This document shows, in pieces, positions 29,779 through 49,229 of a stretch of DNA of 64,000 nucleotides. Under the pieces are notes generated by a model, which did not search any database, was not told where the DNA came from, and worked only from the letters and a program-made list of their open reading frames with translations. Source of the DNA: a virus (Duplodnaviria > Caudoviricetes). Each line of letters starts with the position of its first letter. Positions within the stretch are counted from its first letter, which is position 1. Where the stretch lies: positions 4,825-68,824 of IMG/VR virus record IMGVR_UViG_3300033121_001345; one strand, 5' to 3'. The position numbers were made by a program, and so were the translations under genes.

Positions 29779-29787
29779 AATCTCACT

Positions 29788-29894
29788 AAATGCAAATTGT
29801 TTCAGCGGGTATCAAATGATACCCGCATTTTTATAAGTGTTGCAAAGGTAAACCTCATACAAATGCGGTTAACTGAAGCGGTTAATATTACTAA
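29788..29894 (+). repeat. 107-bp direct repeat, copy 1 (structured gene leader)
   Basis: 105/107 identical to 30218-30324; contains the perfect hairpin GCGGGTATCA-AA-TGATACCCGC. Confidence 0.95.
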
Positions 29895-29911
29895 TCTCTA
29901 AAATCAAAACA

Positions 29912-30202: not shown

Positions 30203-30217
30203 CTTTAGAGAGTCTGC

Positions 30218-30324
30218 AAATGCAAATTGTTTCAGCGGGTATCAAATGATACCCGCATTTTTATAAGTGTTGCAAAGGTAAACCTTATACAAATGCGGTT
30301 AACTGAAGCGGTTAACATTACTAA
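30218..30324 (+). repeat. 107-bp direct repeat, copy 2
   Basis: See copy 1; two substitutions. Confidence 0.95.
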
Positions 30325-30775: not shown

Positions 30776-30784
30776 GATTTTGAT

Positions 30785-30875
30785 GTGTTGTCGTGAGGGA
30801 GCATCGGATAAAGTTGACACAAGGATTCTCTGTAATCTTAGGGATACTTCCTCCTCCGATGTTCCTACGACACAC
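30785..30875 (+). other. Long imperfect RNA stem-loop after an early gene
   Basis: GGAGCATCGGA (30798-30808)/TCCGATGTTCC (30855-30865) and TGTCGT/ACGACA pair, with an inner AGGATT/AATCTT hairpin. Confidence 0.7.
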
Positions 30876-31011
30876 TAATTTACTCACTGTTACACAGTGT
30901 TATCTTAATTCTAAAGATTCCTCCGTTATCAACGTTTAAAACGATACCTATGTTACTAACATTTCTAATGATTCTATATAGTGAAATTCTTGTATTCATT
31001 GTATTCCTTAA

Positions 31012-31143
31012 GTTTCAAACCTTTGCTTGGTTTCTTACGTTTCTAAGGTTACTTTGGTTTCAAATGTTTCTATGTTTCCTATGTTTCCTATGTTTCTTTG
31101 TTTCATAGTTTCAATGTTTCCTATGTTTCCTATGTTTCATAGT
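31012..31143. repeat. Degenerate 8-9-bp tandem array with a GTTTC core (TGTTTCCTA-like)
   Basis: About 14 GTTTC cores at 8-9-nt period. Confidence 0.85.
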
Positions 31144-31305
31144 AATTTTAACATAGTTAACATTTGATTCTAAGTGTTACAAGTAGAATACTTATGGTTA
31201 ACGTTTAATGATACTATGTTACTATTATAAGTAACGTTAAGTAATAATATAACATAACTTTTGGTACGACCAAGTGAAACCTTATAAAAATTAAAAATTA
31301 TACTC

Positions 31306-31647: not shown

Positions 31648-31717
31648 CTTTGACCTTTGACCTTTGACCTTTGACCTTTGACCTTTGACCTTTGACCTTT
31701 GACCTTTGACCTTTGAC
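31643..31717. repeat. Heptamer tandem array (TTTGACC)n
   Basis: 11 TTTGAC cores, 9 of them perfect TTTGACC units. Confidence 0.95.
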
Positions 31718-31774
31718 ACAATTTTTATCTTATCTTTATAAACACTATTACATAACTTTAAAACACAATCAATT

Positions 31775-34144
31775 ATGAGAACATCTAAAAAATGGGAGGT
31801 GACGCTATTATCTGGCGAAACCTTCGTCTCCGAATCTGCCGCTGCGGCTTTGAGAGAACTTAAAATCAGGGATATTATTCCTGTTAATTACGCAGAGGCA
31901 GACTCTGCGGTTAGGGCTTTGGGAAAACTTGTCCGTAATCGTGTTATCAGTTCTGCTGATACTATTGATTCCGATTTTCCTACCAAGATTACTCCTCTTG
32001 ATGATGCCGATGATGCTCCAGATATTGCAACGATTCTTGATTTTGATGTGGAATCCAAACCAAGCCTTCAAGTGTTGCTGCCTTATCTTGACTACAACAA
32101 GTCGAAATTATCGGAATTCAAGTACAATGAGCTACTGGAATCATTCTTTGATGGTGACAGGGATAATATTTTTCTTCCTGTTAAATTTAATTCTTTTGAT
32201 AAAGATGGCAACCTAAAAGAATTTAATATCGAGCCTACTATCTTTGATATCATAGTTGCTCATACAAGATTTCAAAAGTATCCTGCTATGACTGCCTTAA
32301 AGTTCATGCACTATATTATTAACAGACGAGACTACAAAGATTTATATGGAGTTGATACACATACATACATAAAAGAAGAAGATATGAACGGTAGCCCAAT
32401 GAGGCTTAATTTTATGACTTCTAATTATAATATCTTACGTCAGCTTTTTGACATAAAACTTATTGACGAAGTTGATGGTAGGGTTCTTGATTCTGATTAC
32501 TTTGGTGTTTATGACAAGTTATACACCTTAAAACATGAGACGTCTCCATTAGACGTTCTTTTTGGGTATCCTAAGATAAACCGTGTATATCCAGTTGATG
32601 TATATGGTAACAGAATTGATAACCAGATTATTGAGTTTTCGTTTAAAAAAGAGTTACTTTCTAAATGGTCTTCAGCTGAAAATCTAACGTATGAAATATA
32701 CAATAGTACACTTACTTGGAATACAGCTATGGAAGAATCTCAGTATGATGATTTTTGGAGAGAAATTGCGCATAACAGAAATTACGATGATACTAAAGCA
32801 TCAGAGGTTATACATGAATCTCTTTCAAAATTTGTGTCGTCACAAGAAAAAAGTGGATACGAGAATATTAAAAATCTGTTTGATATGTACCTTAAGTACA
32901 CAAACCTAAACCTATTAGACTTTACCACGATAGACGAGTTTAAAGATTATGCTGACTTCTTATACAAAGATAACATTGAAGGTTATATTGAGAATCCTTC
33001 GGTATATAAAAAGTCTAATACAAAGGCAATAAAAACTGATGCTCCGAAGAAACTTACAGACAAGGATACTGATAACTTTATTGATATACATCTTAATACT
33101 TGGAAGTTCGGGTGCGAGCCTACGTTTATGATTAAACGAGAATTTATCCCTCCACTTATTGATATGTATGCAGAGAATAATATCCTTATAGGATACGATG
33201 CAGATGGTAATACACAGGTTGACTCATTTATTAGTACCATGACTACTACTACTGTTAATTTTCTTGATTGTGTTCAATCCTACGGAGAAAGAAGGTTTAA
33301 CCAATCACTTCCTGATGATTCTTCCGATGAAAATATTAAACATGCTGAGGAAATTAGACCACATCTTCTTGATGCGTATTCTTCGGTCAAACTCGCAAAA
33401 AGGTTTTATAACGACGGAGGTTCACTTGAAGTTCCGACAAAACAGTATGTCAACCATGACGAGTACATGACTGACTATGTAAATTTCTGTAATCTTATGG
33501 ATAAATTAAATTTTAATCCTTCAAGTGTTACATGTCAGGTGTCTGAGGGTGGTTGTCATATTAACTTCAGTACAAGTTTTATCAATGATTTTTACACAAT
33601 GTTTTTTGAGAATAACAAACAGATACTCAGTGATTCATTAGTCAAAAAGATTGAAGAAGCAATGATGAAAAACGCCAAAAGTACTAAAACTGCTGTTAGC
33701 AGGTTTTACGATAATCTCAGAGACTTTATATTAAAGTATCCTTCTGTTGTATGGGCATTTACTACGCCTTATGATACAGAGTCATGTAATATCGTTAAAA
33801 AACCAACAGGAAAAGGACACTTTATTGTCGAACACACAGAGAGAATTGAACTTAGATTTTTTCAAATGCCTGAGTCTCCAGAGGAAATGGATTTGTTTCT
33901 AAAATATGCCAGAGCAATCATGAGTCATATCTTTAAAATAACGTTGATTGACCATGAAGACATTGAACTTTATCAACACTATATTCTTGAAAAGATACCG
34001 CAGAACAATGCTATCAAATTATTTAGAAAAGCCTCAAATGTAATAGGATTCGACCACTCACTTGTTAAATACAGAGAGGACTCAATAAAAGGAAGATACG
34101 CAAACTCATATGCACAACCAGATGGTGAAAAATTCCTTGTGTAG
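31775..34144 (+). CDS. Multidomain protein: N-terminal small domain shared with 37126-37761 plus C-terminal COOH-NH2 ligase (amidoligase, glutamine-synthetase fold)
   Basis: Ordered amidoligase motifs: FGCEPTF, DGGSLEVPT, EGGCHINF, IELRFF. Confidence 0.7.
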   Translation: MRTSKKWEVTLLSGETFVSESAAAALRELKIRDIIPVNYAEADSAVRALGKLVRNRVISSADTIDSDFPTKITPLDDADDAPDIATILDFDVESKPSLQVLLPYLDYNKSKLSEFKYNELLESFFDGDRDNIFLPVKFNSFDKDGNLKEFNIEPTIFDIIVAHTRFQKYPAMTALKFMHYIINRRDYKDLYGVDTHTYIKEEDMNGSPMRLNFMTSNYNILRQLFDIKLIDEVDGRVLDSDYFGVYDKLYTLKHETSPLDVLFGYPKINRVYPVDVYGNRIDNQIIEFSFKKELLSKWSSAENLTYEIYNSTLTWNTAMEESQYDDFWREIAHNRNYDDTKASEVIHESLSKFVSSQEKSGYENIKNLFDMYLKYTNLNLLDFTTIDEFKDYADFLYKDNIEGYIENPSVYKKSNTKAIKTDAPKKLTDKDTDNFIDIHLNTWKFGCEPTFMIKREFIPPLIDMYAENNILIGYDADGNTQVDSFISTMTTTTVNFLDCVQSYGERRFNQSLPDDSSDENIKHAEEIRPHLLDAYSSVKLAKRFYNDGGSLEVPTKQYVNHDEYMTDYVNFCNLMDKLNFNPSSVTCQVSEGGCHINFSTSFINDFYTMFFENNKQILSDSLVKKIEEAMMKNAKSTKTAVSRFYDNLRDFILKYPSVVWAFTTPYDTESCNIVKKPTGKGHFIVEHTERIELRFFQMPESPEEMDLFLKYARAIMSHIFKITLIDHEDIELYQHYILEKIPQNNAIKLFRKASNVIGFDHSLVKYREDSIKGRYANSYAQPDGEKFLV

Positions 34145-39803: not shown

Positions 39804-41060
39804 ATGCGTTACACTACCTCAATGGCTGTAAACTTTATAAATGAAGTTTCAGACGTATCATCTACACTTATTAAAAAGGATATAATAAAAAAGTATTATG
39901 ATTCTTTTAAAGATGAGTTTATATCATTTCTTAATGATATATTATCTCAAAACATAAAGTTCGGTATAGACAAAAAGACTCTCTCTGATGAAAGAGTCTT
40001 TTCTTATTCTGGAAAAGAAAATGAATCGGAATTATCAGAGTTAATATCTTATCTCAAGAATAATAACACATCATCTTCGTTTGCAAAGGAAATAGCAATA
40101 TCATTTCTTGCATCGTACAGGGATGATGAGTCTTACTATGGAACTATAAAAAACATTTTATTAAGAACACCACGAGCAGGAATAGATTCAAAGATAGTTA
40201 ATACTGCTCTGGGGTTTATTGCTGTAAAACAGTATCAAGTACAACTCGCATCTCCATTTAGAGGATTTCAAGGAGTTTCAATAATAGAACCAAAGATTGA
40301 CGGAGTAAGATGTACGATACACATGTTTTCACCAGAGAATGTTGTCTTAACGACAAGAAACGGAAAGCAAATATCTGGATATGACGAGCTTGAATTAGAA
40401 ATCAGAAAGTTGCTTATAGATAATCCATCAAGAATAGGATATGTTCTTGATGGTGAGATTATATCTAATAACTTTGATGAAACAATGGAGGGGTTATTCA
40501 GGAAGTCAAGCAACAAAAAGTGTAAATACTGTGCTTGGGATATAATTCCAATCGAAGAATTCGATGGACTTGAGTGCAAAAGAAAACTCTCATCAAGAAA
40601 AGAAACACTTGAACTTCTCTTCTCCGAAGAGCATACGCAATCACAAGTAATATCAGTAATAAAACATACTTTTGTTGACGAGAGCAATATAACAGAAGAG
40701 CACATAAAGAATGTTAATCTTGGATATGAGGGTTCAATTATAAAGGACATTAACTCTTTTTATGAGTACAAGCGTTCTTTTGCTTGGCAAAAGATGAAGG
40801 ATTTTCATACTGATGATTTCATTGTAACAGAGATTCAAGAAGGAGATGGAAAGTATGTAGGTATGCTTGGTGCTTTGTTTATAGATGTCAATGGAGTGTC
40901 TGTTAAGGTTGGCTCTGGATTTACAGACCAACAAAGAGAAACGATTTGGAATAATCCAAGATACTATATAGGAAAGTACATAGAGGTTGAATACCAAGAA
41001 GTAACAAGGGATAAGTCACTAAGATTCCCTGTCTTTAAAAGATTTAGATTTGATAAATAA
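39804..41060 (+). CDS. lig: ATP-dependent DNA ligase
   Basis: Motif I EPKIDGVR, III VLDGEI, IV EGSIIK, V WQKMK, OB-fold KVGSGFTD...RFPVF. Confidence 0.95.
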   Translation: MRYTTSMAVNFINEVSDVSSTLIKKDIIKKYYDSFKDEFISFLNDILSQNIKFGIDKKTLSDERVFSYSGKENESELSELISYLKNNNTSSSFAKEIAISFLASYRDDESYYGTIKNILLRTPRAGIDSKIVNTALGFIAVKQYQVQLASPFRGFQGVSIIEPKIDGVRCTIHMFSPENVVLTTRNGKQISGYDELELEIRKLLIDNPSRIGYVLDGEIISNNFDETMEGLFRKSSNKKCKYCAWDIIPIEEFDGLECKRKLSSRKETLELLFSEEHTQSQVISVIKHTFVDESNITEEHIKNVNLGYEGSIIKDINSFYEYKRSFAWQKMKDFHTDDFIVTEIQEGDGKYVGMLGALFIDVNGVSVKVGSGFTDQQRETIWNNPRYYIGKYIEVEYQEVTRDKSLRFPVFKRFRFDK

Positions 41061-41065
41061 AGTAT

Positions 41066-41284
41066 ATGGCAAGACTAAGAACTTTAATAGATTTTAAGGA
41101 AGGAGATGAATTAATCTATGATGATGGAAATAGAACAGCCAATATAAAGGTTGTTACAATACTTATTCCTCAAAAAGGAAAGGAGATATCTTGTATATTT
41201 AAAAACATATCTACTGGAAAGGAGTACAAGGTTTTTGGATATGAGATTTCTTCAGTATACAAGAAAAAACTAAATCAGTTATAA
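41066..41284 (+). CDS. Hypothetical protein (72 aa)
   Basis: ORF track. Confidence 0.55.
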   Translation: MARLRTLIDFKEGDELIYDDGNRTANIKVVTILIPQKGKEISCIFKNISTGKEYKVFGYEISSVYKKKLNQL

Positions 41285-41285
41285 C

Positions 41286-41627
41286 ATGGAAAAGATTATC
41301 TTGCAAAAAACTTACTATGCACAAAGATGCATAGTAAGACACAACAACCTTGAACTCGTACCTATAGTTTCAGTGTACGAAAACGAACAAATAAAATTAT
41401 CTTTGGTTGACGCAGAAACAGGAGAGGTTGCTATTGTGGCATCAATGCAAACAAAAGATAAACTTGACAAGGATGAAGTAATAATAAAAACATTTGGAGA
41501 GTTGCAAGATGGTATTCTTGAAAGTCTTATAATATATGGTGTGGTATCAAACCCAGAAAGATACCTTATTGTTGGACTTAAAAAACACAGAGTTCCAATT
41601 TGCAAACTTATAAAAACAAAGATATGA
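41286..41627 (+). CDS. DUF4313-like hypothetical protein
   Basis: YENEQIKLSLVDAETGEV...DEVIIK...GILESL...VPICKL pattern. Confidence 0.4.
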   Translation: MEKIILQKTYYAQRCIVRHNNLELVPIVSVYENEQIKLSLVDAETGEVAIVASMQTKDKLDKDEVIIKTFGELQDGILESLIIYGVVSNPERYLIVGLKKHRVPICKLIKTKI

Positions 41628-41950
41628 AAATGAATTACTCATATAATGAAATGGAAAGAGCATTTGAGTGTGGTAGAAACTTTCAATTAACAGGAGAGAA
41701 CAACTTCAAAGAGTTAATCGAAGAACTGAATAAAGACCATGAAGGCAGAGTTCAAAAGACATACGTTCTTATTCCTAAAGACAATTCTGAAATCACGCAT
41801 TCGCTAACAATGGGTAAAAAATATTACCCCTTTGATATAACTTCTTCTTCTTTTAGAATAATTTCCGACAACAAAGTTGAGTTGTACTGCTTGTTTAAAA
41901 GCTGTGCTCATATTGGAGGAAAAGATTGGGTTGTAGGAACAGATATTTAA
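41600..41950 (+). CDS. Hypothetical protein (true start probably 41624 or 41630)
   Basis: ORF track. Confidence 0.55.
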   Translation: MQTYKNKDMKMNYSYNEMERAFECGRNFQLTGENNFKELIEELNKDHEGRVQKTYVLIPKDNSEITHSLTMGKKYYPFDITSSSFRIISDNKVELYCLFKSCAHIGGKDWVVGTDI

Positions 41951-41973
41951 TTTTTAATCTTAAATTTAATACT

Positions 41974-42138
41974 ATGTATATCTTTATTTTTGAAGGCGAC
42001 GAGCCAAAAATCAGTGACAAAGTAACTCAAGAAGATATGAATTCATCTGATGATGGTGTTCTTGAAATCATAAGAACATCTGATAATAAACGTTACTTTG
42101 AAGGAGAATGGATAGATATGAAAACTTGGGATAACTAA
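41974..42138 (+). CDS. Small acidic hypothetical protein (54 aa)
   Basis: In-frame ATG within track ORF 41926-42138 with good context. Confidence 0.5.
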   Translation: MYIFIFEGDEPKISDKVTQEDMNSSDDGVLEIIRTSDNKRYFEGEWIDMKTWDN

Positions 42139-42148
42139 TAAAAATAAT

Positions 42149-42544
42149 ATGATAACAAAATATGTATTCAGGAGAAATATTCCAGAGAATTACTGGAAGG
42201 CATTTCTTATATGTGAATGTGAGAATCCATCTGTATCAAAAAAGATAAAAAACTTTGGAGATATATGCGATACATGCAAAAGAGCAATTTTATCTGATAA
42301 GGATTCAATTCAAGAGTATTCGACAACAGATTCTGTACTTGGAAACATTAAAAAGATTAATAAAAAAGTTGCAGAGTTATCCACGTCACTGGAAGATTCA
42401 TCATTAAAAGATGAAACAAATGAAACAAGTAACAGTGAATGGAAACCAGAAGAATGCTCTTGTCTTCATCCGATGCTATCAGAAGATATGTTTTCTGGTA
42501 AATATATTTGCCTTAAGTGTAATTTACATAAATCGTCTAATTAA
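42149..42544 (+). CDS. Cys-rich hypothetical protein (131 aa)
   Basis: CECE, CDTC, CSC, CLKC motifs. Confidence 0.55.
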   Translation: MITKYVFRRNIPENYWKAFLICECENPSVSKKIKNFGDICDTCKRAILSDKDSIQEYSTTDSVLGNIKKINKKVAELSTSLEDSSLKDETNETSNSEWKPEECSCLHPMLSEDMFSGKYICLKCNLHKSSN

Positions 42545-42554
42545 AAACTGAATA

Positions 42555-42971
42555 ATGAAACAGAAAATAGAGTCCGCCATTAGAGAAACACTTGTTATAA
42601 CAAATAAACAAAGTATTTCAAGGGCAGTAGAAAAAATACTAATTACAACAGAACAGGAGCAAGAAATCACCGATGTTTCTGTTTGTAAATGTAAAGATAA
42701 AATAGGAGAAACGAAACTTTTGTGTTGCAATGCAGTATTAGTGGATAAATGGATTTCAGTAAACGACAGATTGCCTGAAAATGAAAATCCATTCTCTAAT
42801 GATGTCGTTCTTTTTTGGAGCAAGAAACATGGCTTTTGGATGATAGGATGTTATGATTATGAATTTTCAGACTGGACAAGACTTCCGTGGGAGAAAGGAT
42901 ATAAGTCATTGTCATTTGATGATGTTACACATTGGATGCCTTTGCCGGAACGTCCGACAGATTGCGACTAA
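42555..42971 (+). CDS. DUF551-domain protein
   Basis: WISVNDRLPE...VTHWMPLPERP; its stop TAA is part of the first attC-like inverse core. Confidence 0.85.
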   Translation: MKQKIESAIRETLVITNKQSISRAVEKILITTEQEQEITDVSVCKCKDKIGETKLLCCNAVLVDKWISVNDRLPENENPFSNDVVLFWSKKHGFWMIGCYDYEFSDWTRLPWEKGYKSLSFDDVTHWMPLPERPTDCD

Positions 42972-43096
42972 CAGTATTCCGCTATGAGTAGTGGCGGATT
43001 TAGAACTACTCACTTTAAATTTAGCACAAATGTTAATAGAAAGCACAAATGTTAAATTACCACTTCAACCGCCTTTACTTATAGCGGATATTAGCG
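42966..43096 (+). repeat. attC-like site 1 (131 bp; core variant A|TTAGCG)
   Basis: GACTAAC + 5 nt + TCCGCTATGAGTA..GGCGG / CCGCC..TACTTATAGCGGA + T + ATTAGCG. Confidence 0.75.
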
Positions 43097-43434
43097 GTAG
43101 TACTTCTTGGGACGAATGGTTATCTGAAACGGAAACCAAACTCAAAGAATTAGGATACAGAAGATACGTTCAAAATCATAAAAACGAAGATTTCTGTTAT
43201 TGGAAAACTTTTAAGAATGGTGAAGATAAAACCTATCAGATAGGTATATTATTTTATGATTTTAGAAAGTATGCAGACAGTGACCCAGACGCAAATAGAA
43301 TAGGAATAATGTATGAATGTAGGATTTTAGATGAGGGTAGAATTGATATGTCTGTTAGTAAAAACATTGATTTGGTAGAGTTTGAAAATATGGCACAAAC
43401 TTTTTACGTAGCAATGTCGCAGTATTGCCACTAA
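43030..43434 (+). CDS. Cassette A hypothetical protein; start codon lies inside site 1
   Basis: Track ORF 42991-43434; in-frame ATG at 43030; no Met for about 75 codons after the crossover. Confidence 0.7.
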   Translation: MLIESTNVKLPLQPPLLIADISGSTSWDEWLSETETKLKELGYRRYVQNHKNEDFCYWKTFKNGEDKTYQIGILFYDFRKYADSDPDANRIGIMYECRILDEGRIDMSVSKNIDLVEFENMAQTFYVAMSQYCH

Positions 43435-43514
43435 CGGTTTGCGTATAAGAGATGTGGCACTTATATGAAGGTTAAAATCAAGGCACAAAGCCCAATGTGC
43501 CATATCTTTTATAC
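43429..43514 (+). repeat. attC-like site 2 (collapsed right end)
   Basis: CACTAAC + GGTTT + GCGTATAAGAGATGTGGCAC / GTGCCATATCTTTTATACGC; no separate G|TT core. Confidence 0.7.
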
Positions 43515-43583
43515 GCTGGCACGGATAGTTTAAGATAAAGTTCAATCGGCGCAGAAAAGAAAACAATAAATAATTTTTTAGCG

Positions 43584-44072
43584 ATGGCAAAATATATAGC
43601 ATTAACACAGGGGAAACAAGCATTAATTGATGATGATGTTTTTGAGAAATACGGAACAGTTCCTTTTCACGCCTCAAAGGTGAAGGATAAGTTTTATGCA
43701 AGAACATCAAGAACGCTTTTGCCTCATTCAATTAGAACCTACTTGCACCATTTGGTTATTGGTTTGCCATCAAATAAACAATGGATGATTTGCTTTAAAG
43801 ATGGAAATACCTTGAACTGCCAAAAAGAAAATTTGCAATACATACGAAAATCAGATAACACACAGAAGCATTCAAAATTGCAAACCGAAAGAAAGAAAAG
43901 TTCAAAGTATTTAGGAGTAACATTTAGACCAGCACACTTTAAAGCACGAATAAAATTTGATGGCAAAACAATAAACATTGGAGAATACAAAACAGAAGGA
44001 GAAGCTGCAAAAGCATACAACGATTACGCTAAAAAACTATTTGGAGAAAAAGCAAAACTTAATTCTTTATGA
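43584..44072 (+). CDS. Cassette B: HNH-AP2 family protein with degenerate HNH
   Basis: LTQGKQALIDDD, LHHLVIG, CFKDGNTLNCQKENL (His of the usual DH missing), SSKYLGV...AAKAYNDYAKKLFGEKAKLN. Confidence 0.85.
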   Translation: MAKYIALTQGKQALIDDDVFEKYGTVPFHASKVKDKFYARTSRTLLPHSIRTYLHHLVIGLPSNKQWMICFKDGNTLNCQKENLQYIRKSDNTQKHSKLQTERKKSSKYLGVTFRPAHFKARIKFDGKTINIGEYKTEGEAAKAYNDYAKKLFGEKAKLNSL

Positions 44073-44138
44073 GGGCAGAAAAAATTATTTATTGTTTTCT
44101 AACGAAAAGTTAAATCGGAGAACGAATGCAGTGCTTGC

Positions 44139-44236
44139 GTATAACGTTTTGCAGCTAACAGAAGTGTATGCTTGTAAGAACTTCTGAATTAAAAACAAAT
44201 GCTTGTAGCAGCCATTTTTGTTAGGTGCTGTTATAG
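44139..44236 (+). repeat. attC-like site 3 (98 bp)
   Basis: GTATAAC + GTTTT + GCAGCTAACAGAA / TTTTGTTAGGTGC + T + G|TTATAG. Confidence 0.8.
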
Positions 44237-44255
44237 GTAGTAAAATTTACGGAAT

Positions 44256-44483
44256 ATGAAAATAGAAACTAAAGAAAATCAGATTATTTTGAAAGAAGTG
44301 TATAACTCAATTACACTTGAAACACGAGAAGGAAAGCAATTACATATCTGTATGAGAGATATGGGATTTGAAATGAAGATTGATGATGGTGATTGGCACT
44401 TGCTAACTAACGAATCTGATTTTCTGATTAAACCAAAAGGATTTCAATACAGAGAGCCAGACTTTCCAGTAGCACAAGGGTAG
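44256..44483 (+). CDS. Cassette C hypothetical protein (75 aa, own ATG)
   Basis: ORF track; lies wholly inside cassette 44231-44622. Confidence 0.75.
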   Translation: MKIETKENQIILKEVYNSITLETREGKQLHICMRDMGFEMKIDDGDWHLLTNESDFLIKPKGFQYREPDFPVAQG

Positions 44484-44496
44484 TAAATTTTATTCC

Positions 44497-44628
44497 CTAT
44501 AACGTTTTGCGGCTATGCTTAGTGCCGTATTTAAAAGACTAAGCCAATCTTAAACAACAAAATTAATATGGAAAATACAGGATTATTTAACACAGAAGGT
44601 AAGGCATTGAGCATAGCCGATGTTATGG
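44497..44628 (+). repeat. attC-like site 4 (132 bp)
   Basis: CTATAAC + CGGCTATGCTTAGTGCC / GGCATTGAGCATAGCCG + AT + G|TTATGG. Confidence 0.85.
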
Positions 44629-44777
44629 CTATGTTGCCTACTACAATGATTAACAGAGTTGAAGTGATTGACGAAAACGGGAGAAGCTACGTTAATTGGA
44701 AGCCAACTAACAGAACTGAATTGCAAGTGCAAGACAACGGTAGAACGCTAAAAGTATTTGTGTCGCAAGGCAATTAG
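44568..44777 (+). CDS. Cassette D hypothetical protein (69 aa; first 18 aa encoded by site 4)
   Basis: ORF track; KALSIADV is the translated right arm of site 4. Confidence 0.7.
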   Translation: MENTGLFNTEGKALSIADVMAMLPTTMINRVEVIDENGRSYVNWKPTNRTELQVQDNGRTLKVFVSQGN

Positions 44778-44831
44778 CCATAACGGACGAGTATTTGCGC
44801 TCGTTTTAATGGCGCAAATACTTTGTTGCCA
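44778..44831 (+). repeat. attC-like site 5 (compact, 54 bp)
   Basis: CCATAAC + GGACG + AGTATTTGCGC / GCGCAAATACT + TT + G|TTGCCA. Confidence 0.85.
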
Positions 44832-44888
44832 GTAGTAGCGGTTGATTAGGATAAAACTAAATTAGAAACGAAAATAAAAATAGCAATT

Positions 44889-45212
44889 ATGGCACAGATA
44901 CACGATGATTTTGAAAAGGCAATACTGCAATGCGGATTTAAAAAAGATTATAACAAGCAGTATGATTACCAAATGTATGATGGAACTTGGTTTTATAAAC
45001 TAAATTTTGAGGGATACGCTTATGTGCTTTACAAAGAGATAAATATTTATGTAAAACCACTTATGAGCCTTTTTAAAATCTACAACAAATTTGCAAAAGG
45101 AACGGCACAAATAGGATTGCATTACGCTGTGCCTATTGCACACTTTAGAGAACCGCAAAAGCTAATTGACATAATTACTATTTTAACCGATAAACTTGAT
45201 GAAAAGGACTAA
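44889..45212 (+). CDS. Cassette E hypothetical protein (107 aa, own ATG)
   Basis: ORF track; inside cassette 44826-45349. Confidence 0.75.
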   Translation: MAQIHDDFEKAILQCGFKKDYNKQYDYQMYDGTWFYKLNFEGYAYVLYKEINIYVKPLMSLFKIYNKFAKGTAQIGLHYAVPIAHFREPQKLIDIITILTDKLDEKD

Positions 45213-45224
45213 CGTAGCTATTAC

Positions 45225-45355
45225 TGGTAACGGCTACGGCTTTGCGTTAGTGCCGTAATAGAATTACTAACGCTCAATTTAAAACAAAAGTAAAATGGAA
45301 GAACAAAACTTGATTAAACAACCGAACTCGGCATTGCACAAAACCGCTGTTAGTG
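45225..45355 (+). repeat. attC-like site 6 (131 bp)
   Basis: TGGTAAC + GGCTA + CGGCTTTGCGTTAGTGCCG / CGGCATTGCACAAAACCG + CT + G|TTAGTG; one extrahelical base. Confidence 0.85.
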
Positions 45356-45837
45356 GCAGTGCTTTGAGATACAACGGTGGTAAATTACGTTGGTCGCTTG
45401 TTGACTTTGATGCCTTAGAAGATATGGTTAAAGTCTTGGAATTTGGGGCGAAGAAATACGCTGATAATAACTGGAAGAAAGGTCTTAAAACGCCTGAGAT
45501 TTTTGAAAGTATGATGAGGCACATGACTGCATATATGCGTGGTGAAGATATTGACACTGAAAGTGGGTTACCACACACAGGTCATATATTATGTAATGCG
45601 ATGTTTTTGTCATATATGCAGCGTTTTAAGCCCGACTTTGATACAAGGCACAAAGACAAAAACAAGCGGTTAGGTGCTGTTATAAGCCGTTATTCTGATG
45701 CCGATATATTTAGGTTTTCAGATGGATGGTGGATTACAACGTATAGTAAGGAGCAAAAGAGATTTATAAAGTTAATAGGTAGCTTCAAAACTAAAGATGA
45801 AGCAAGGGCTGAAATTCGTTCACTTAATGGCTTATAA
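45295..45837 (+). CDS. dATP/dGTP diphosphohydrolase (DUF5664-like) fused in frame to cassette G ORF
   Basis: RYNGGKLRWSLV, VLEFGAKKY..NNWKKG, RH..AY..GEDIDTESGLPH..H..CNAMFL; extra 53-aa tail after an internal half site. Confidence 0.85.
   Translation: MEEQNLIKQPNSALHKTAVSGSALRYNGGKLRWSLVDFDALEDMVKVLEFGAKKYADNNWKKGLKTPEIFESMMRHMTAYMRGEDIDTESGLPHTGHILCNAMFLSYMQRFKPDFDTRHKDKNKRLGAVISRYSDADIFRFSDGWWITTYSKEQKRFIKLIGSFKTKDEARAEIRSLNGL
45669..45685 (+). repeat. attC-like half site (right arm and core only)
   Basis: GTTAGGTGCTGTTATA is identical (16 nt) to the right arm of site 3 at 44220-44235. Confidence 0.75.
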
Positions 45838-45962
45838 CGGACGGGGCTTTGCGTTCGGGCGGATTTTGAAAAACTAAAGTTGAATAACAGATGGAGTTAA
45901 ATAGAAATACAAATGTTGAAAGTTTGCACGTCAGCCAGCCTGACGCAAAACCCATGTTATAC
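45832..45962 (+). repeat. attC-like site 7 (131 bp)
   Basis: TTATAAC + GGACG + GGGCTTTGCGT / ACGCAAAACCC + AT + G|TTATAC. Confidence 0.8.
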
Positions 45963-46646
45963 GCTGGGGCGGTTGAAAAGGCACAGATTTCCATTTATAA
46001 CGAAGATTGTTTGCAAGCATTAAAGGCAATGGCAGACAAACAATTTGATTTGGCGATAGTTGACCCGCCTTATGGGATTGGTGCAAGTAGTAAAAATTTT
46101 ATTAGGCAAGGTAAGCAAACTGGCAAAAGTATGGCTGTAAGTGGAATAAAATATACTGCTAAGGATTGGGATAATTGTGTGCCTGATAAAATTTACTTTG
46201 ATGAATTAAGGCGGGTTTCAAAAAATCAAATTGTATGGGGTGGCAATTATTTTGCTTCTTCATTACCAAATAGCAGTTGCTGGCTTATATGGGATAAGGT
46301 AACAGGCGATAATTTGTATGCTGATGCTGAACTTGCTTGGACTTCATTTGAGAAAGCTGTAAGGAAATTTACTTGGATGTGGAAAGGGATGTTTCAGCAA
46401 AATATGGCTAATAAGGAGGATAGAATACACCCAACTCAAAAGCCTGTTGCATTATACAAATGGATACTTGAAAACTATGCAGAAAAAGGAAGCAAAATAC
46501 TTGACACCCATTTAGGAAGTGGAAGCATTGCCATTGCCTGCTGGGATATGGGATACGATTTAACAGCGTATGAGGTTGATAAGGAGTATTACGATAATGC
46601 TTGCAAACGATTAGAAACGCATAAGTCTCAATTAACGCTGTGGTAG
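45891..46646 (+). CDS. Cassette H: DNA amino-methyltransferase (beta class, m6A/m4C)
   Basis: Catalytic IVDPPY precedes SAM-binding ILDTHLGSGS; HPTQKP motif. Confidence 0.92.
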   Translation: MELNRNTNVESLHVSQPDAKPMLYAGAVEKAQISIYNEDCLQALKAMADKQFDLAIVDPPYGIGASSKNFIRQGKQTGKSMAVSGIKYTAKDWDNCVPDKIYFDELRRVSKNQIVWGGNYFASSLPNSSCWLIWDKVTGDNLYADAELAWTSFEKAVRKFTWMWKGMFQQNMANKEDRIHPTQKPVALYKWILENYAEKGSKILDTHLGSGSIAIACWDMGYDLTAYEVDKEYYDNACKRLETHKSQLTLW

Positions 46647-46653
46647 CCCTTGC

Positions 46654-46741
46654 GTATAACAGTCGTATAGATGCAGTCCGTGAGGTCGGAAAACCTAACA
46701 ACTACCTGTGTGCCGAGGATTGCATCTATACTTTGTTATAA
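46654..46741 (+). repeat. attC-like site 8 (88 bp, last in array)
   Basis: GTATAAC + GTATAGATGCAGTCC / GGATTGCATCTATAC + TTT + G|TTATAA. Confidence 0.85.
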
Positions 46742-46899
46742 ATATAACTATATCTATTGTGATTATCGTTTAAAATTCGTTATTTTTGATGATAATTTAA
46801 TCAGCAATATTTTATCATAACAATAATAAAACAAAAAATTACGCTGTATTACATGGCAAATTTTGCGTATTTTTGCAACGTTACAAACAATTACAAAGC

Positions 46900-47274
46900 A
46901 TGTATAAACCACTCGTAATAATAGAGTCACCTTATGCTGGTGACATAGAAAGAAATATAAAATATGCAAGAGCTTGCATAAAAGATTCTTTAAAAAGAGG
47001 CGAGGCGCCTATAGCATCTCATTTGCTTTATACACAAGAAGGAATACTTAATGATAATATTTTCGAGGAAAGGGAACTTGGAATTAAAGCTGGATTAGCA
47101 TGGCTAAGTGTTGCACATAAACAGGTATTCTATATTGATTATGGATTCTCAAATGGAATGAGAAAAGCACTCGATTACTCAAATAAGAACAATCTTAATG
47201 TTATCATAGAGACAAGGACGCTGTATTCAGACAGTCAAAATAATTCATTATTAGAAACAATTAAAGAAGAATAA
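46900..47274 (+). CDS. Nucleoside 2-deoxyribosyltransferase-like phage protein
   Basis: VIIESPYAGDIERNIKYAR, GEAPIASHLLYTQ, ERELGI.AG, YIDYGFSNGM; TATTTTTG -7 box at 46868. Confidence 0.7.
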   Translation: MYKPLVIIESPYAGDIERNIKYARACIKDSLKRGEAPIASHLLYTQEGILNDNIFEERELGIKAGLAWLSVAHKQVFYIDYGFSNGMRKALDYSNKNNLNVIIETRTLYSDSQNNSLLETIKEE

Positions 47275-47711
47275 TGGCAGTTTCAGCAACAGCATTAGTA
47301 ACAGGTGGAAAGGTTAAATATCGAGTAGACCTTATAGAACATATTGATAGATTTGTCAAATTACGAGAAGGAAAGACAATAATCGTAACTTATGAAGACA
47401 ACCTTCTTGATGAATCTGAAAGAAACAGGATGGTCTCTTACTATAAAAGAGATGTTCTTCCAGCAGTATTTGATATGCTAACAAAGAATGGTGCTTCAGT
47501 AGAAACACTTGATGATGTTGACTGGTTTCTTGTTAACAAGTTTATGCCAAAGAAAAAAGTAACTTCACCATTTACAGGTGATATTCTTATACCAAAAAGA
47601 TTTAAAGACCTTGACGAAGTATCTATGGTTGACTTTTTATCAACTATATCTATGTGGACAACTACAACATACAGACAATCATTACCGAAAATTATAAGAA
47701 ATGAACGATAA
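47274..47711 (+). CDS. NinB/Orf-like recombination protein
   Basis: YY..V.PAV...FL..KF...FKDLD...M.DFL..I..W layout. Confidence 0.5.
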   Translation: MAVSATALVTGGKVKYRVDLIEHIDRFVKLREGKTIIVTYEDNLLDESERNRMVSYYKRDVLPAVFDMLTKNGASVETLDDVDWFLVNKFMPKKKVTSPFTGDILIPKRFKDLDEVSMVDFLSTISMWTTTTYRQSLPKIIRNER

Positions 47712-48189
47712 TAAAGAAAAAACAGAAGCAACAGTTATAAACCTAATGAAAGGAACTCTTTCATTTATAGCTAAAAATGGAGACTACATAACAATACCAT
47801 CTTCTGGTGAAGCAAAGGTTGACATAATAAGAGTAGATGGAGATACCACTGCAAACACACAAGGTCTCGAGATTAAGACAAATAAGACTATTGTTGGAAA
47901 GATTACTGGATTGCCTTCTTATAACAAAGATTACATTTACATTGTTCCAACTCTTGTTTATCAAAGTATTCACCACGAAAGACCAGATGTTTACATAGTT
48001 GATGAATTAATAAGAGACCACGGCACAGTTAAAGTCGCAAAGGCTATATCAAGACCAGAGTTTAAGTCTGTACTTTCCGACTTTGAAAGGATAAATAATA
48101 TACTTGTTTCTATAGATTTTGACAATAGTTCATCTATAATAAATTCTGTTTTTGAGGCTAAAACAATTACAGATAAATACATTAAGTAA
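47701..48189 (+). CDS. Conserved phage hypothetical protein (IPSSG...GLP...IYIV...RPDV...RD)
   Basis: Recognisable phage family pattern; function unknown. Confidence 0.6.
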   Translation: MNDNKEKTEATVINLMKGTLSFIAKNGDYITIPSSGEAKVDIIRVDGDTTANTQGLEIKTNKTIVGKITGLPSYNKDYIYIVPTLVYQSIHHERPDVYIVDELIRDHGTVKVAKAISRPEFKSVLSDFERINNILVSIDFDNSSSIINSVFEAKTITDKYIK

Positions 48190-48212
48190 TAACTATAAAT
48201 ACAAATTTACAC

Positions 48213-49229
48213 ATGCCACGAATACTTACAAATAAGTACGGCTTCCCTGAGCCATTACTAAGGGCATTATCCTTTGATGGATATGAAAAAAGAGGTTACA
48301 TAAGCGTAACGAGTCTTATCGACTCTCCAAAGGTAAGGCTTATAAGAAATAACTTTGAGTATTACGAAGATGTATCAGACCTTGTCTGGTCTGTACAGGG
48401 TTCTGCCATGCATACAGTTCTTGAAAGGGCTTGCGAAATGATTTCTAAGTACGACAGAGACAATGGAATACTTGAACCAAGATATATCGCAGAGCATAAG
48501 ATGGATTACAAGTTTCTTGGGCATCATTTAACAGATAACGGAGAGGGTGTACATATTACTGGAACACTTGACCTACTTCATGTGCTAAAGCCAAGAATAC
48601 TTTTTGACTACAAAAATACTACAGTCTGGAAAATAATAAAATGCAAAAAGACTGTAGACGAAAGAGGCTCTGTTATATATAAAGCAGGAAAAGACGACGT
48701 GGTTGACTGGCAAAAACAGTTAAATATGTATGCACACATGTACTACAAGTTACATGGTATCAAAATAGAAAAAATACGAGTAATTGTCTTTGTAAAAGAT
48801 TGGACCGCAAGGGAAGCATACAAAGAAGACTATCCAGAAAAGCCAGTAGTTATGGTGGATATTCCTGTTTATTCTGATGAATCAATAGAAAAGTTTATAG
48901 TTAAACGAATAGAGACACATTATGCAGCAGAAAGAATATTTAACACAGAAGGGATTGATGCTGTCCCAGAATGTACTCCAGAGGAACGATGGTCGTCTCC
49001 TCCAACATACAAAATAATGCCTTATGAAGGTGCTAAAAGGGCAATATCTGGAGGTGTATATGAAATAACATCAAAAGAGGAAGAAAACAAAGCGATAGCA
49101 CACTATAATGCACTTAAACTTAATGATTCAAAAATATTCCTAAAGAAAGTATTAGGAGAAGACAGAAGGTGCGAGAACTACTGTCCATTAAAAATACACT
49201 GTCATTACTTCAAATCTAAAAATACATAA
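48213..49229 (+). CDS. PD-(D/E)XK RecB/Cas4-like exonuclease
   Basis: GSAMH..LE, GTLDL, DYK, QLNMY, C-terminal Cys cluster CENYC....C. Confidence 0.85.
   Translation: MPRILTNKYGFPEPLLRALSFDGYEKRGYISVTSLIDSPKVRLIRNNFEYYEDVSDLVWSVQGSAMHTVLERACEMISKYDRDNGILEPRYIAEHKMDYKFLGHHLTDNGEGVHITGTLDLLHVLKPRILFDYKNTTVWKIIKCKKTVDERGSVIYKAGKDDVVDWQKQLNMYAHMYYKLHGIKIEKIRVIVFVKDWTAREAYKEDYPEKPVVMVDIPVYSDESIEKFIVKRIETHYAAERIFNTEGIDAVPECTPEERWSSPPTYKIMPYEGAKRAISGGVYEITSKEEENKAIAHYNALKLNDSKIFLKKVLGEDRRCENYCPLKIHCHYFKSKNT

Follow-up and report, generated by a model that had tools for sequence, protein, structure and literature searches.

Gene cassettes with folded hairpin sites in a 69-kb phage form an integron-like array, probably a recombinase-less copy of a system with a linked Xer-like recombinase

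INTRODUCTION

The closest described systems are integrons and CALINs. With them, the phage locus reported here shares small accessory genes that lie in a co-oriented row and mostly look promoterless, folded imperfect palindromes with ..AAC and GTT.. cores and a 5-nt spacer, and cassettes whose first bases pair with their own last bases. As in integrons, related arrays have a fixed insertion site beside a tyrosine recombinase gene of the Xer/IntI group, and as in a CALIN, the present copy is without the enzyme. In contrast to integrons, the enzyme linked to the arrays is an Xer-like protein of 267 to 281 aa that falls under the IntI cut-off, and its gene is located downstream of the array and co-oriented with it, whereas that of an integron is upstream and divergent. 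Furthermore, crossover most likely takes place 5' of the hairpin (sense strand) and the site precedes its own gene, the outer stem is 14 bp long and cassette-specific with a fixed G.T wobble, and the carriers are phages.

The PeSL (promoter-early stem-loop) cassettes of T4-type phages, for which homologous recombination has reportedly been proposed, likewise consist of stem-loop modules that recur between genes, on either side of small accessory ORFs, in a plastic phage region and are thought to mediate shuffling. We know of no gene-specific terminal inverted repeats and no linked recombinase in PeSL cassettes, whereas the arrays described here have such repeats and, in relatives, a linked recombinase. 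In the CTX phage, host XerCD acts on attP(+), a hairpin folded from one DNA strand in which mismatches mark the site. An Xer-type recombinase on a folded single strand is also what we propose for the present arrays, but CTX integrates its whole genome at dif via host XerCD and is not a gene-cassette array.

In the literature, we found only one "CALIN," that of the Polaribacter phage P12002L, reported as two isolated attC sites of the classical integron type (Qi et al. 2023, Front Microbiol, PMC9892861). IntI1 recombined all of six phage "attC" sites except one of these two, P12002L_attC1 (PMC9892861). Array-wide architecture, end repeats, and an Xer-like recombinase are not part of that description.

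RESULTS

Nine co-oriented hairpin sites in 3.8 kb

The window (the whole stretch of phage DNA that was analyzed; 64,000 nt) belongs to a complete phage genome of 68.8 kb. A 3.8-kb stretch of this 69-kb phage (42968-46760) contains nine small gene cassettes in a row, each with a hairpin site. The nine co-oriented junction sites have the form ..TAA|C, about 5 nt, long hairpin, 1 to 3 nt, G|TTA, with a left spacer of 5 nt and a right spacer of 0 to 3 nt. The ends of the sites fit RYYYAAC ... GTTRRRY with a 5-nt spacer and a hairpin, and in the fold of all nine junctions, a bulge separates an outer TATAAC/GTTATA stem from a long inner stem. Every cassette has a single hairpin, the orientation of which always matches that of the genes, and the inverted-repeat ends differ from cassette to cassette. 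The features are as follows.

42968-43090, plus strand: junction S1; TAAC at 42968-42971, which doubles as the stop of the DUF551 backbone gene; spacer AGTAT; arms 42978-42997 and 43069-43088; no G before TT
42971-43434, plus strand: cassette 1 (A); hairpin S1 and a 134-aa ORF (43030-43434), function not assigned, start codon (43030) in the S1 loop; end repeat TTAGCGGTAGTACT / AGTATTGCCACTAA
43435-44144, plus strand: cassette 2 (B); hairpin S2 (arms 43441-43460 and 43497-43516) and an HNH-AP2 endonuclease ORF (43584-44072)
44145-44502, plus strand: cassette 3 (C); hairpin S3 (site 44142-44230) and a 75-aa ORF (44256-44483); 22-nt end repeat 44229-44250 / 44483-44504
44503-44783, plus strand: cassette 4 (D); hairpin S4 (site 44500-44622; 23-bp stem including 4 G.T) and a 69-aa ORF (44568-44777), start in the loop
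44784-45230, plus strand: cassette 5 (E); S5-type hairpin (site 44781-44825, loop CTCGTTTTAATGG) and a 107-aa ORF (44889-45212)
45231-45668, plus strand: cassette 6 (F), 3'-truncated; hairpin S6 (site 45228-45349) and a dATP/dGTP diphosphohydrolase N-terminal domain (PF18909, phrog_801), ORF start 45295 in the loop
45666-45837, plus strand: cassette 7 (G), 5'-truncated; hairpin 3' remnant GGTTAGGTGCTG (S7) and about 52 codons in frame with F; end repeat TTATAAGCCGTTAT / TTAATGGCTTATAA
45838-46659, plus strand: cassette 8 (H); hairpin S8 (site 45835-45956) and an N6/N4 DNA methyltransferase ORF (45891-46646), start in the loop; 16-nt end repeat 45955-45970 / 46646-46661
46660-46747, plus strand: cassette 9, without an ORF; hairpin S9 (arms 46665-46679 and 46717-46731), then G|TTATAAATATAA
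46745-46760, plus strand: array end, TAA|C TATATCTATTG, with no recombinase gene after it

We conclude that mobile cassettes with folded hairpin sites make up an integron-like array in the region from 42971 to 46747. The initial annotation had reported eight sites with G|TT. The hairpins and the complementarity of segment starts and ends are present where it placed them, but the junctions number nine, followed by a terminal TAAC (46745-46748); S1 and S2 lack G|TT, and S7 (about 45666-45679) is a hairpin 3' remnant only, located within a fused ORF. The right end repeat of cassette B, TTATACGCTGGCAC, overlaps the S2 3' arm, which suggests a deletion fusion. A CALIN is called from at least two same-orientation sites without a nearby integrase; with nine such junctions in 3.8 kb, the locus is CALIN-like, but only by analogy, its sites being putative rather than established IntI-type attC sites.

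Each cassette has its own covarying end repeat

Every gene segment has a 14-bp inverted repeat of its own at its ends, and the consensus of this gene-enclosing repeat is TTA-N5-(A/T)G-N4 ... N4-TT-N5-TAA. Over 14 positions, the cognate ends form 11 Watson-Crick (WC) and 2 G.T pairs in A, 12 and 2 in E, and 12 and 1 in each of B, C, G, and H, while the ends of D form 15 WC pairs and 1 G.T pair around a 1-nt bulge. In the region 43177-47176, we counted 30 exact inverted repeats (≥10 nt, within 1.2 kb), compared to 7.4 ± 3.5 in shuffles, and the genome outside this region was at background. The pairing of a segment with its own ends, which had been put forward as diagnostic, holds overall, but not as a strict rule: the start of F pairs 14/14 with the end of A, and the termini of H and B are nearly alike.

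The same diagnostic extends to other phage contigs. In 76 segments, the ends of the same segment had 8.0 WC and 1.3 G.T pairs of 13 positions, whereas ends facing each other across a hairpin had 4.25 WC pairs and random pairs of ends 3.8. Among 58 unique cassettes, the outer stem was exactly 14 bp long; positions 4 to 8 and 11 to 14 covary, position 10 is a G.T pair in 44/58, and positions from 15 on are random.

The hairpins fold on the sense strand

In 46 unique S5-type hairpins, all 11 stem positions covary around the fixed loop TCGTTTTAATG. The folding strand is the sense strand, as 116 G.T but only 31 A.C oppositions were counted in 105 stems (symmetric scoring, p about 1e-12). The same site types were detected in 37 viral contigs and a 635-kb phage, and homologues of S1, S2, S3, S5, and S6 occur inside recombinase-linked arrays, among them an S1 homologue (83%; locus L111) and S3 (91% identical, upstream of recombinases in L105 and L107-L109). 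P12002L_attC1 is itself an S5-type hairpin (TAAC, arm, TCGTTTTAATG, arm, G|TTAGG), and two methyltransferase genes of the sister phage P12002S are surrounded by an entire row of such junctions.

Sense-strand folding, co-orientation with the genes throughout, and the location of the start codons of A, D, F, and H in hairpin loops fit a role at the RNA level equally well. The hairpins could be elements of a polycistronic early transcript, either processing or stability sites or structures that present a start codon in an open loop, and the modules could be swapped by ordinary homologous recombination at the hairpins with no site-specific enzyme, as for PeSL. The conserved loop sequence of the S5-type hairpins is what a binding site would show. 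However, the sites had no match to any Rfam family, ribozymes included, and homologous exchange leaves unexplained why each gene has its own covarying 14-bp terminal inverted repeat.

Cassettes are reassorted with breaks mainly at TAA|C

Other genomes carry cassettes of the window in a different order, and the breaks are at TAAC. When homology blocks between phages were compared, 46/74 left ends were at TAA|C, and homology usually continued 35 to 60 nt beyond G|TT; G|TT was also a frequent boundary, with 18 right ends there. Shared whole cassettes were delimited from TAAC to TAAC, as in L032/L034 and for cassette E in L024. In the latter locus, E is 95.7% identical (447 versus 446 nt), no other cassette lies between it and the recombinase gene, and the flanks of E diverge at TAAC on both sides. 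Recombinase-adjacent arrays finish in ..TAA|C with no hairpin after it. These block ends, TAAC-bounded cassettes, and array ends point to AA|C as the most likely crossover position, which on the sense strand lies 5' of the hairpin and would assign the hairpin to the downstream gene. Cassettes are reassorted between phages, but the initial assignment of recombination to G|TT does not hold for the main break.

S2 is 95% identical in LR745206.1, the huge 635-kb phage, and 93% in L010/L168, with different neighbors there; the termini of G were found with different cargo in L003, L031, and L033; and a homologue of H (66%) is located within an array upstream of a recombinase gene (L133). In 117 locus pairs, the same hairpin has both flanks different, as an exchange of RNA modules would predict. 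Homologous exchange at conserved hairpins would likewise yield G|TT boundaries and identical hairpins with new flanks. It does not account for the breaks at TAAC next to hairpins that are not alike.

In four metagenomes, cassettes were present at a depth of 20 to 1150 (A at 20 to 90), compared to 0 to 7 for the backbone of the present phage; B itself was at backbone depth only. Contig pieces of E ended at 45230-45232, and in three runs, pieces of F stopped at 45670 and pieces of G started at 45666. One contig (run X11) has D directly 3' of F, with the junction at TAAC 44500. No circular junctions or excision products were seen in these runs, which are assembled contigs and not reads.

Related arrays are linked to an Xer-like recombinase gene

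The annotated lack of an integrase in the window applies to the complete 68.8-kb genome, which has no PF00589 (tyrosine recombinase) match at an E value of ≤1; therefore, movement in the present phage cannot be shown. The recombinase is also absent from the 635-kb phage and five further complete records with arrays, and arrays persist widely without the enzyme. That most complete array phages are without any tyrosine recombinase would suit an RNA-level role.

In related arrays, a gene for a 267- to 281-aa Xer-like tyrosine recombinase is located directly downstream, in the same orientation. Homologues of this recombinase are encoded in 78 viral loci, 44 of which have at least 2 kb on both sides. 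In these 44 loci, co-oriented sites occur at 1.24/kb upstream versus 0.063/kb downstream of the recombinase gene, a 20-fold enrichment, and 39/44 have at least two co-oriented sites. The arrays stop at an AAC|NNNTATATGTA junction 55 to 75 nt before the recombinase gene, an arrangement found in L013, L024, L042, and 39/44 informative loci and absent in the present phage. Furthermore, in loci with recombinases that are ≥92% identical, an identical AAC|TATTATATGTA is abutted by five different last cassettes. The fixed stop before the recombinase gene and the same-strand upstream enrichment are not explained by homologous exchange, and we regard the alternative of RNA elements swapped in that way as rather unlikely, though the strongest of those considered. 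The hairpins may have an RNA role on top of recombination.

The end of the present array (46745-46760) may be what remains of an attI-like junction, AAC|NNNTATATGTA; the likeness, AAC|TATAT at 46746-46752, is suggestive only, since it is short (AACTATAT; 8 AT-rich bases).

Judged by sequence, the linked recombinase is Xer-like, not IntI. Its best families are XerA, XerD, and XerC, and against the IntI model TIGR02249, the recombinases score 154 to 166 bits, in two stretches, versus a cut-off of 265. A tyrosine recombinase acting in trans, as initially suggested, is likely the enzyme that serves the array; its assignment to the integron type was not borne out. These scores also bear on the view that the locus is a fragment of a classical integron, with true attC sites, a host IntI, and crossover at G|TT. 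The RYYYAAC ... GTTRRRY ends, the 5-nt spacer, and the hairpin fit this view, and HattCI called a site of the same family attC in P12002L. However, the breakpoints favor TAA|C and the downstream gene takes the hairpin along, the linked recombinases lie under the IntI cut-off and match IntI4 (2a3v) best in a stretch comprising the N-terminal half only, and the sole site of six not recombined by IntI1, P12002L_attC1, has the loop TCGTTTTAATG. To our knowledge, attC sites have no cassette-specific outer stem of 14 bp. A classical integron origin is thus very unlikely.

DISCUSSION

We interpret the locus as a recombinase-less (CALIN-like) copy of an integron-like cassette-array system whose Xer-like enzyme is encoded downstream of the array in relatives (probability about 0.78). 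Slightest of all is the chance that the cassettes are transposon-like elements with terminal inverted repeats, or of the palindrome-associated IS200/IS605 kind, with the transposase elsewhere and the hairpins as subterminal structures: inverted repeats starting with TTA and ending with TAA do flank the genes, and TAAC precedes the hairpin much as a tetranucleotide does in IS608-type left ends, but the repeats differ between cassettes and covary and are not readable by sequence for a single end-binding transposase, the gene found beside the arrays is a tyrosine recombinase gene, Y1 HUH transposase (PF01797) is absent from the genome, and the 78 recombinase-linked loci have no HUH or DDE transposase gene.

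In the proposed cassette-array system, a cassette would begin with the C of a ..TAA|C, end with the TAA of the following one, and consist of the 5-nt spacer, the long hairpin (often with the start codon in its loop), G, and the gene. In a circular cassette, or in a single-stranded and folded one, the two ends would pair and stack below the cassette's own hairpin. The resulting fold would resemble the bottom strand of an integron attC, in which an unpaired spacer lies between the inner stem and an R-box-like outer stem that ends in AA|C. The small Xer-like tyrosine recombinase would act on this fold, presumably on single-stranded DNA, exchange strands at AA|C, the probable position of the phosphodiester cut, and put cassettes, possibly via circular intermediates, into the fixed AAC|NNNTATATGTA site. 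The present phage would have lost, or never had, the recombinase gene, and its cassettes could move only with a co-infecting phage or the host as the source of the enzyme in trans, or through homologous exchange where hairpins are shared.

Sequenced relatives indicate that the hosts of array-bearing phages are probably Bacteroidota. At somewhat less than even odds, phages as different as the present one of 69 kb and that of 635 kb may share a communal cassette pool, in which an Xer-like recombinase would act on the folded sense strand, the hairpin would serve both as recombination site and as 5' leader, and arrays without an enzyme would be restocked in trans during co-infection.

Layout of the cassette array

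The source is a single virus record of 68.8 kb (33% G+C; CheckV completeness, 100%), and the window corresponds to its bases 4825 to 68824. Upstream of position 42971, the genes are tightly packed; from 42971 to 46900, a spacer of 50 to 250 nt follows every gene. Each of these spacers contains TAA|C, approximately 5 nt, a long imperfect hairpin, 1 to 3 nt, and (G)|TT; in the RNAfold structure of each site, a bulge separates the outer TATAAC/GTTATA stem from a long inner stem. With a cassette running from the C of TAA|C to the TAA of the next site, the array comprises the following (window coordinates):

42971-46747, plus strand: cassettes A to H and a ninth cassette without an ORF
45295-45837: single ORF reading from the dATP/dGTP diphosphohydrolase domain of cassette F into cassette G
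46745-46748: terminal TAAC

The initial annotation had described eight hairpin sites with a G|TT core. Such sites are indeed present in the spacers, but there are nine junctions (S1 to S9) in addition to the terminal TAAC. S1 and S2 have no G before TT, and of the S7 hairpin only the 3' part is present, located inside the ORF in which the diphosphohydrolase domain is fused to a short unrelated tail. The seven pairings described between the start and the end of the same segment were all recovered, with 11 to 12 Watson-Crick pairs and 1 to 2 G·T pairs of 14; cassette D pairs around a 1-nt bulge. In the region 43177-47176, we counted 30 exact inverted repeats (≥10 nt; maximum distance, 1.2 kb) versus 7.4 ± 3.5 in shuffles, and this excess was absent in all other parts of the genome. 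The array ends with TAA|C TATATCTATTG, and no recombinase gene follows.

Cassettes B and H contain additional repeats:

43558-43579 / 44079-44100: perfect 22-bp inverted repeat bracketing the HNH-AP2 endonuclease ORF of cassette B
43756-43775 / 43955-43974: second repeat of cassette B, 20 nt, within the HNH-AP2 gene
45955/46661, 46005/46612, 46024/46539, 46040/46234, 46094/46194, 46238/46509: six long inverted repeats of cassette H (methyltransferase, 45957-46659), nested without crossing

Cassette B may be an older cassette into which the HNH-AP2 endonuclease gene was inserted separately. Both cassettes are strongly structured (z about -5); for H, the fold z-score was -5.25 for the sense strand versus +0.45 for the opposite strand. 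This is not general for cassettes: 52 interiors from other loci averaged z = -0.97, and we rejected internal structure as a common means of bringing cassette ends together.

The site family beyond the window

LR745206.1, an uncultured phage of 635 kb, contains the S2 hairpin (43432-43518) with 95% identity; there, the genes differ on both sides, and the surrounding sequence likewise forms a row of such junctions. For the S5-type hairpin, which has a fixed loop and is represented in cassette E, the search pattern was TAACGGNCG, 8 to 14 nt, CGTTTTAATG. It matched 37 IMG/VR contigs, in which a simple site finder detected co-oriented arrays of up to 13 sites. The 46 unique S5-type hairpins showed covariation at all 11 stem positions around the fixed loop. 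A scan of bacterial genomes with this pattern gave 55 matches, a number expected by chance; most were without a hairpin, and the true sites were mostly on short Bacteroidota MAG contigs. We conclude that the site family is widespread and not peculiar to the phage of the window.

In 76 segments between two detected sites, the two ends of the same segment formed 8.0 Watson-Crick and 1.3 G·T pairs of 13 positions beyond the core, compared to 4.25 Watson-Crick pairs for ends across a hairpin and 3.8 for random pairs. A position profile of 58 unique cassettes revealed an outer stem of exactly 14 bp, random from position 15 on. Positions 1 to 3 are TTA/TAA, positions 4 to 8 and 11 to 14 covary, position 9 is A·T or T·T, and position 10 is a conserved G·T (44 of the 58 cassettes). 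The inner stems contained 116 G·T versus 31 A·C under a scoring equal for both. Because of this excess, the folding strand is the sense strand of the genes; therefore, the hairpin precedes its gene.

A Xer-like recombinase is linked to related arrays

The absence of an integrase, noted initially for the window, extends to a lack of any tyrosine recombinase in the whole genome. Neither a Y1 HUH transposase (PF01797) nor, by tblastn, a homologue of the array-linked recombinase described below was detected in the genome. In three related loci (L013, L024, and L042), a recombinase gene of 267 to 277 aa follows immediately downstream of the array and is co-oriented with it. The array-linked recombinases carry PF00589 and PF13495; their best models are archaeal XerA, XerD, and XerC, they score below the IntI cutoff, and their nearest solved structures are XerA. 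A further locus (L033, 8753-9004) has a truncated array recombinase between two arrays, comprising the first 84 residues and 84.5% identical to the L013 enzyme.

In the reverse test, the recombinase alignment was used as a query and yielded 78 further viral loci, of which 44 had at least 2 kb on both sides and were used for counting. Co-oriented sites occurred at 1.24 per kb upstream versus 0.063 per kb downstream of the recombinase, and sites on the other strand at 0.22 and 0.075 per kb, respectively. At least two upstream sites were present in 39 of the 44 loci. Two bacterial genomes, Flavobacterium bernardetii (L185) and a Sphingobacteriales MAG (L186), have recombinase homologues (240 to 255 bits; open frames of 341 to 363 aa) without upstream hairpin arrays.

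A conserved junction lies 55 to 75 nt before the recombinase start codon and consists of a variable cassette end, AAC, and then NNNTATATGTA. This attI-like junction reads AAC|TATTATATGTA; the short match of the array end in the window to it is only suggestive. Among loci with recombinases that share at least 92% identity, five different last cassettes adjoin the identical right half of the junction, a pattern expected from repeated insertion at one site. Furthermore, homologues of the window hairpins S1, S2, S3, S5, and S6 and of its methyltransferase occur inside recombinase-linked arrays. In summary, the window array is a real, well-delimited, recombinase-less member of a phage integron-like cassette system.

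Break points and movement of cassettes

Crossover had been placed at G|TT by the initial annotation. Instead, the main break is TAA|C: when nonduplicate loci were compared, 46 of the 74 left boundaries of homology blocks fell at this position, and right ends were mostly 35 to 60 nt past G|TT, in a conserved leader. L024 carries cassette E together with its S5 hairpin at 95.7% identity (447 versus 446 nt), and the sequences diverge immediately outside TAAC on both sides. L032 and L034 provide a second such case; a supposed tRNA T-arm at the end of their shared cassette was discarded, as ARAGORN finds no tRNA. Apparent joints inside the methyltransferase gene were also rejected as excision events: they are divergent methyltransferase homologues at 85% likeness.

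We compared 41000-48500 with contigs from four DNA metagenomes, which include wastewater and river samples. Depth was 0 to 7 for the phage backbone and 20 to 1150 for cassettes A and C to H, cassette B (HNH-AP2) being the only one at backbone depth. Pieces of E end at 45230-45232, and one contig contains F, 53 other bases, and then TAAC 44500 with S4 and D, which is a different cassette order. F (end, 45670) and G (start, 45666) occur as separate units, and therefore the F/G junction in the window is a deletion fusion. The window adds a clean recombinase-less example and direct metagenome evidence of its cassettes circulating apart from the phage backbone. Searches for backbone relatives retrieved only two unrelated GC-richer contigs via DUF7768 and one weak match via DUF551, and a 24-kb megablast query produced only short matches to phage records, with no same-backbone relative.

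The hairpin and its two flanks assort largely independently of one another, the hairpin staying with the downstream flank in 6 of 14 cases versus 1 of 6 for the upstream flank. Identical hairpins with both neighbors different could also reflect homologous exchange at shared hairpins together with a role at the RNA level, a reading in line with the sense strand being the one that folds, the position of start codons within hairpin loops, and the many arrays without a recombinase. However, it does not account for end repeats that covary and are specific to each cassette, for breaks at TAAC between dissimilar hairpins, or for the fixed junction before the recombinase gene, and we consider it unlikely; an RNA role in addition to recombination is possible. 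An Rfam scan of 42800-46900 (E ≤ 10) gave two chance snoRNA matches and no ribozyme or known structured RNA. Transposon and classical IntI/attC readings each fail on some of the tested features.

Other features of the genome

Outside the array, the following was observed:

genome 3228-13610 (window up to 8786), minus strand: single ORF of 3460 aa, structural half of the genome
11788-16824: ORF of 1678 aa, structural half of the genome
14067-14212, plus strand: site-like TAAC, 19-bp AT-rich stem, and GTT inside minus-strand structural genes; probably picked up by chance by the loose finder
29779-29911 and 30203-30292: two copies of an approximately 90-nt element (G+C-rich hairpin, then a T run; GCGGGTATCAAATGATACCCGCATTTTT), each after one of two successive small genes; probably terminators within a duplicated module
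30776-31305: 530-nt noncoding stretch with dense short direct repeats (TTTCCTATGTTTC and variants)
31648-31774: approximately ten tandem copies of CTTTGACCT before a 789-aa gene at 31775; together with 30776-31305, this looks like an origin or iteron region

Proposed mechanism and relation to integrons

Integrons are considered to be bacterial systems operated by IntI, which cuts the recombinogenic bottom strand of attC between A and C. The folding strand of the phage sites (AA|C, 5-nt spacer, stem, loop, stem, GTT) has the form of that bottom strand but, in contrast to integrons, is the sense strand of the genes. When a cassette is circular or folded, pairing of its 14-bp end repeat would complete the stem beneath the hairpin. 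We propose, from sequence comparison, that the Xer-like enzyme recombines folded single strands and that cassettes are inserted at the junction beside its gene; the phage of the window would depend on an enzyme supplied in trans.

attC clusters lacking an integrase ("CALINs") were reported in virulent phages, and P12002L_attC1 was the one of six sites that IntI1 did not recombine (Qi et al. 2023, PMC9892861). We found that P12002L_attC1 is an S5-type hairpin. The sister phage P12002S (L099, KR136260.1, 32404-42583) has a row of approximately 13 small genes, among them those for an HNH endonuclease and two methyltransferases, with CAAC...GTTG junction cores and cassette-specific end repeats (e.g., TTGTGCATAGTA / TACTATGCACAA). 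This array is the same system in a cultured phage. Literature searches found no account of a Xer-like phage cassette system, and the system is essentially undescribed in print.

The system could supply a compact, structure-specific recombination tool, and TAAC to TAAC would be a precise rule to delimit such genes in metagenomes. If our reading is true, virulent and giant phages have a system that is parallel to integrons but uses another recombinase, inverts the arrangement of site and gene, and has a site grammar of its own. This would explain how these phages acquire and exchange methyltransferases, enzymes of the nucleotide pool, and many small genes of unknown function, which likely serve in counter-defense.
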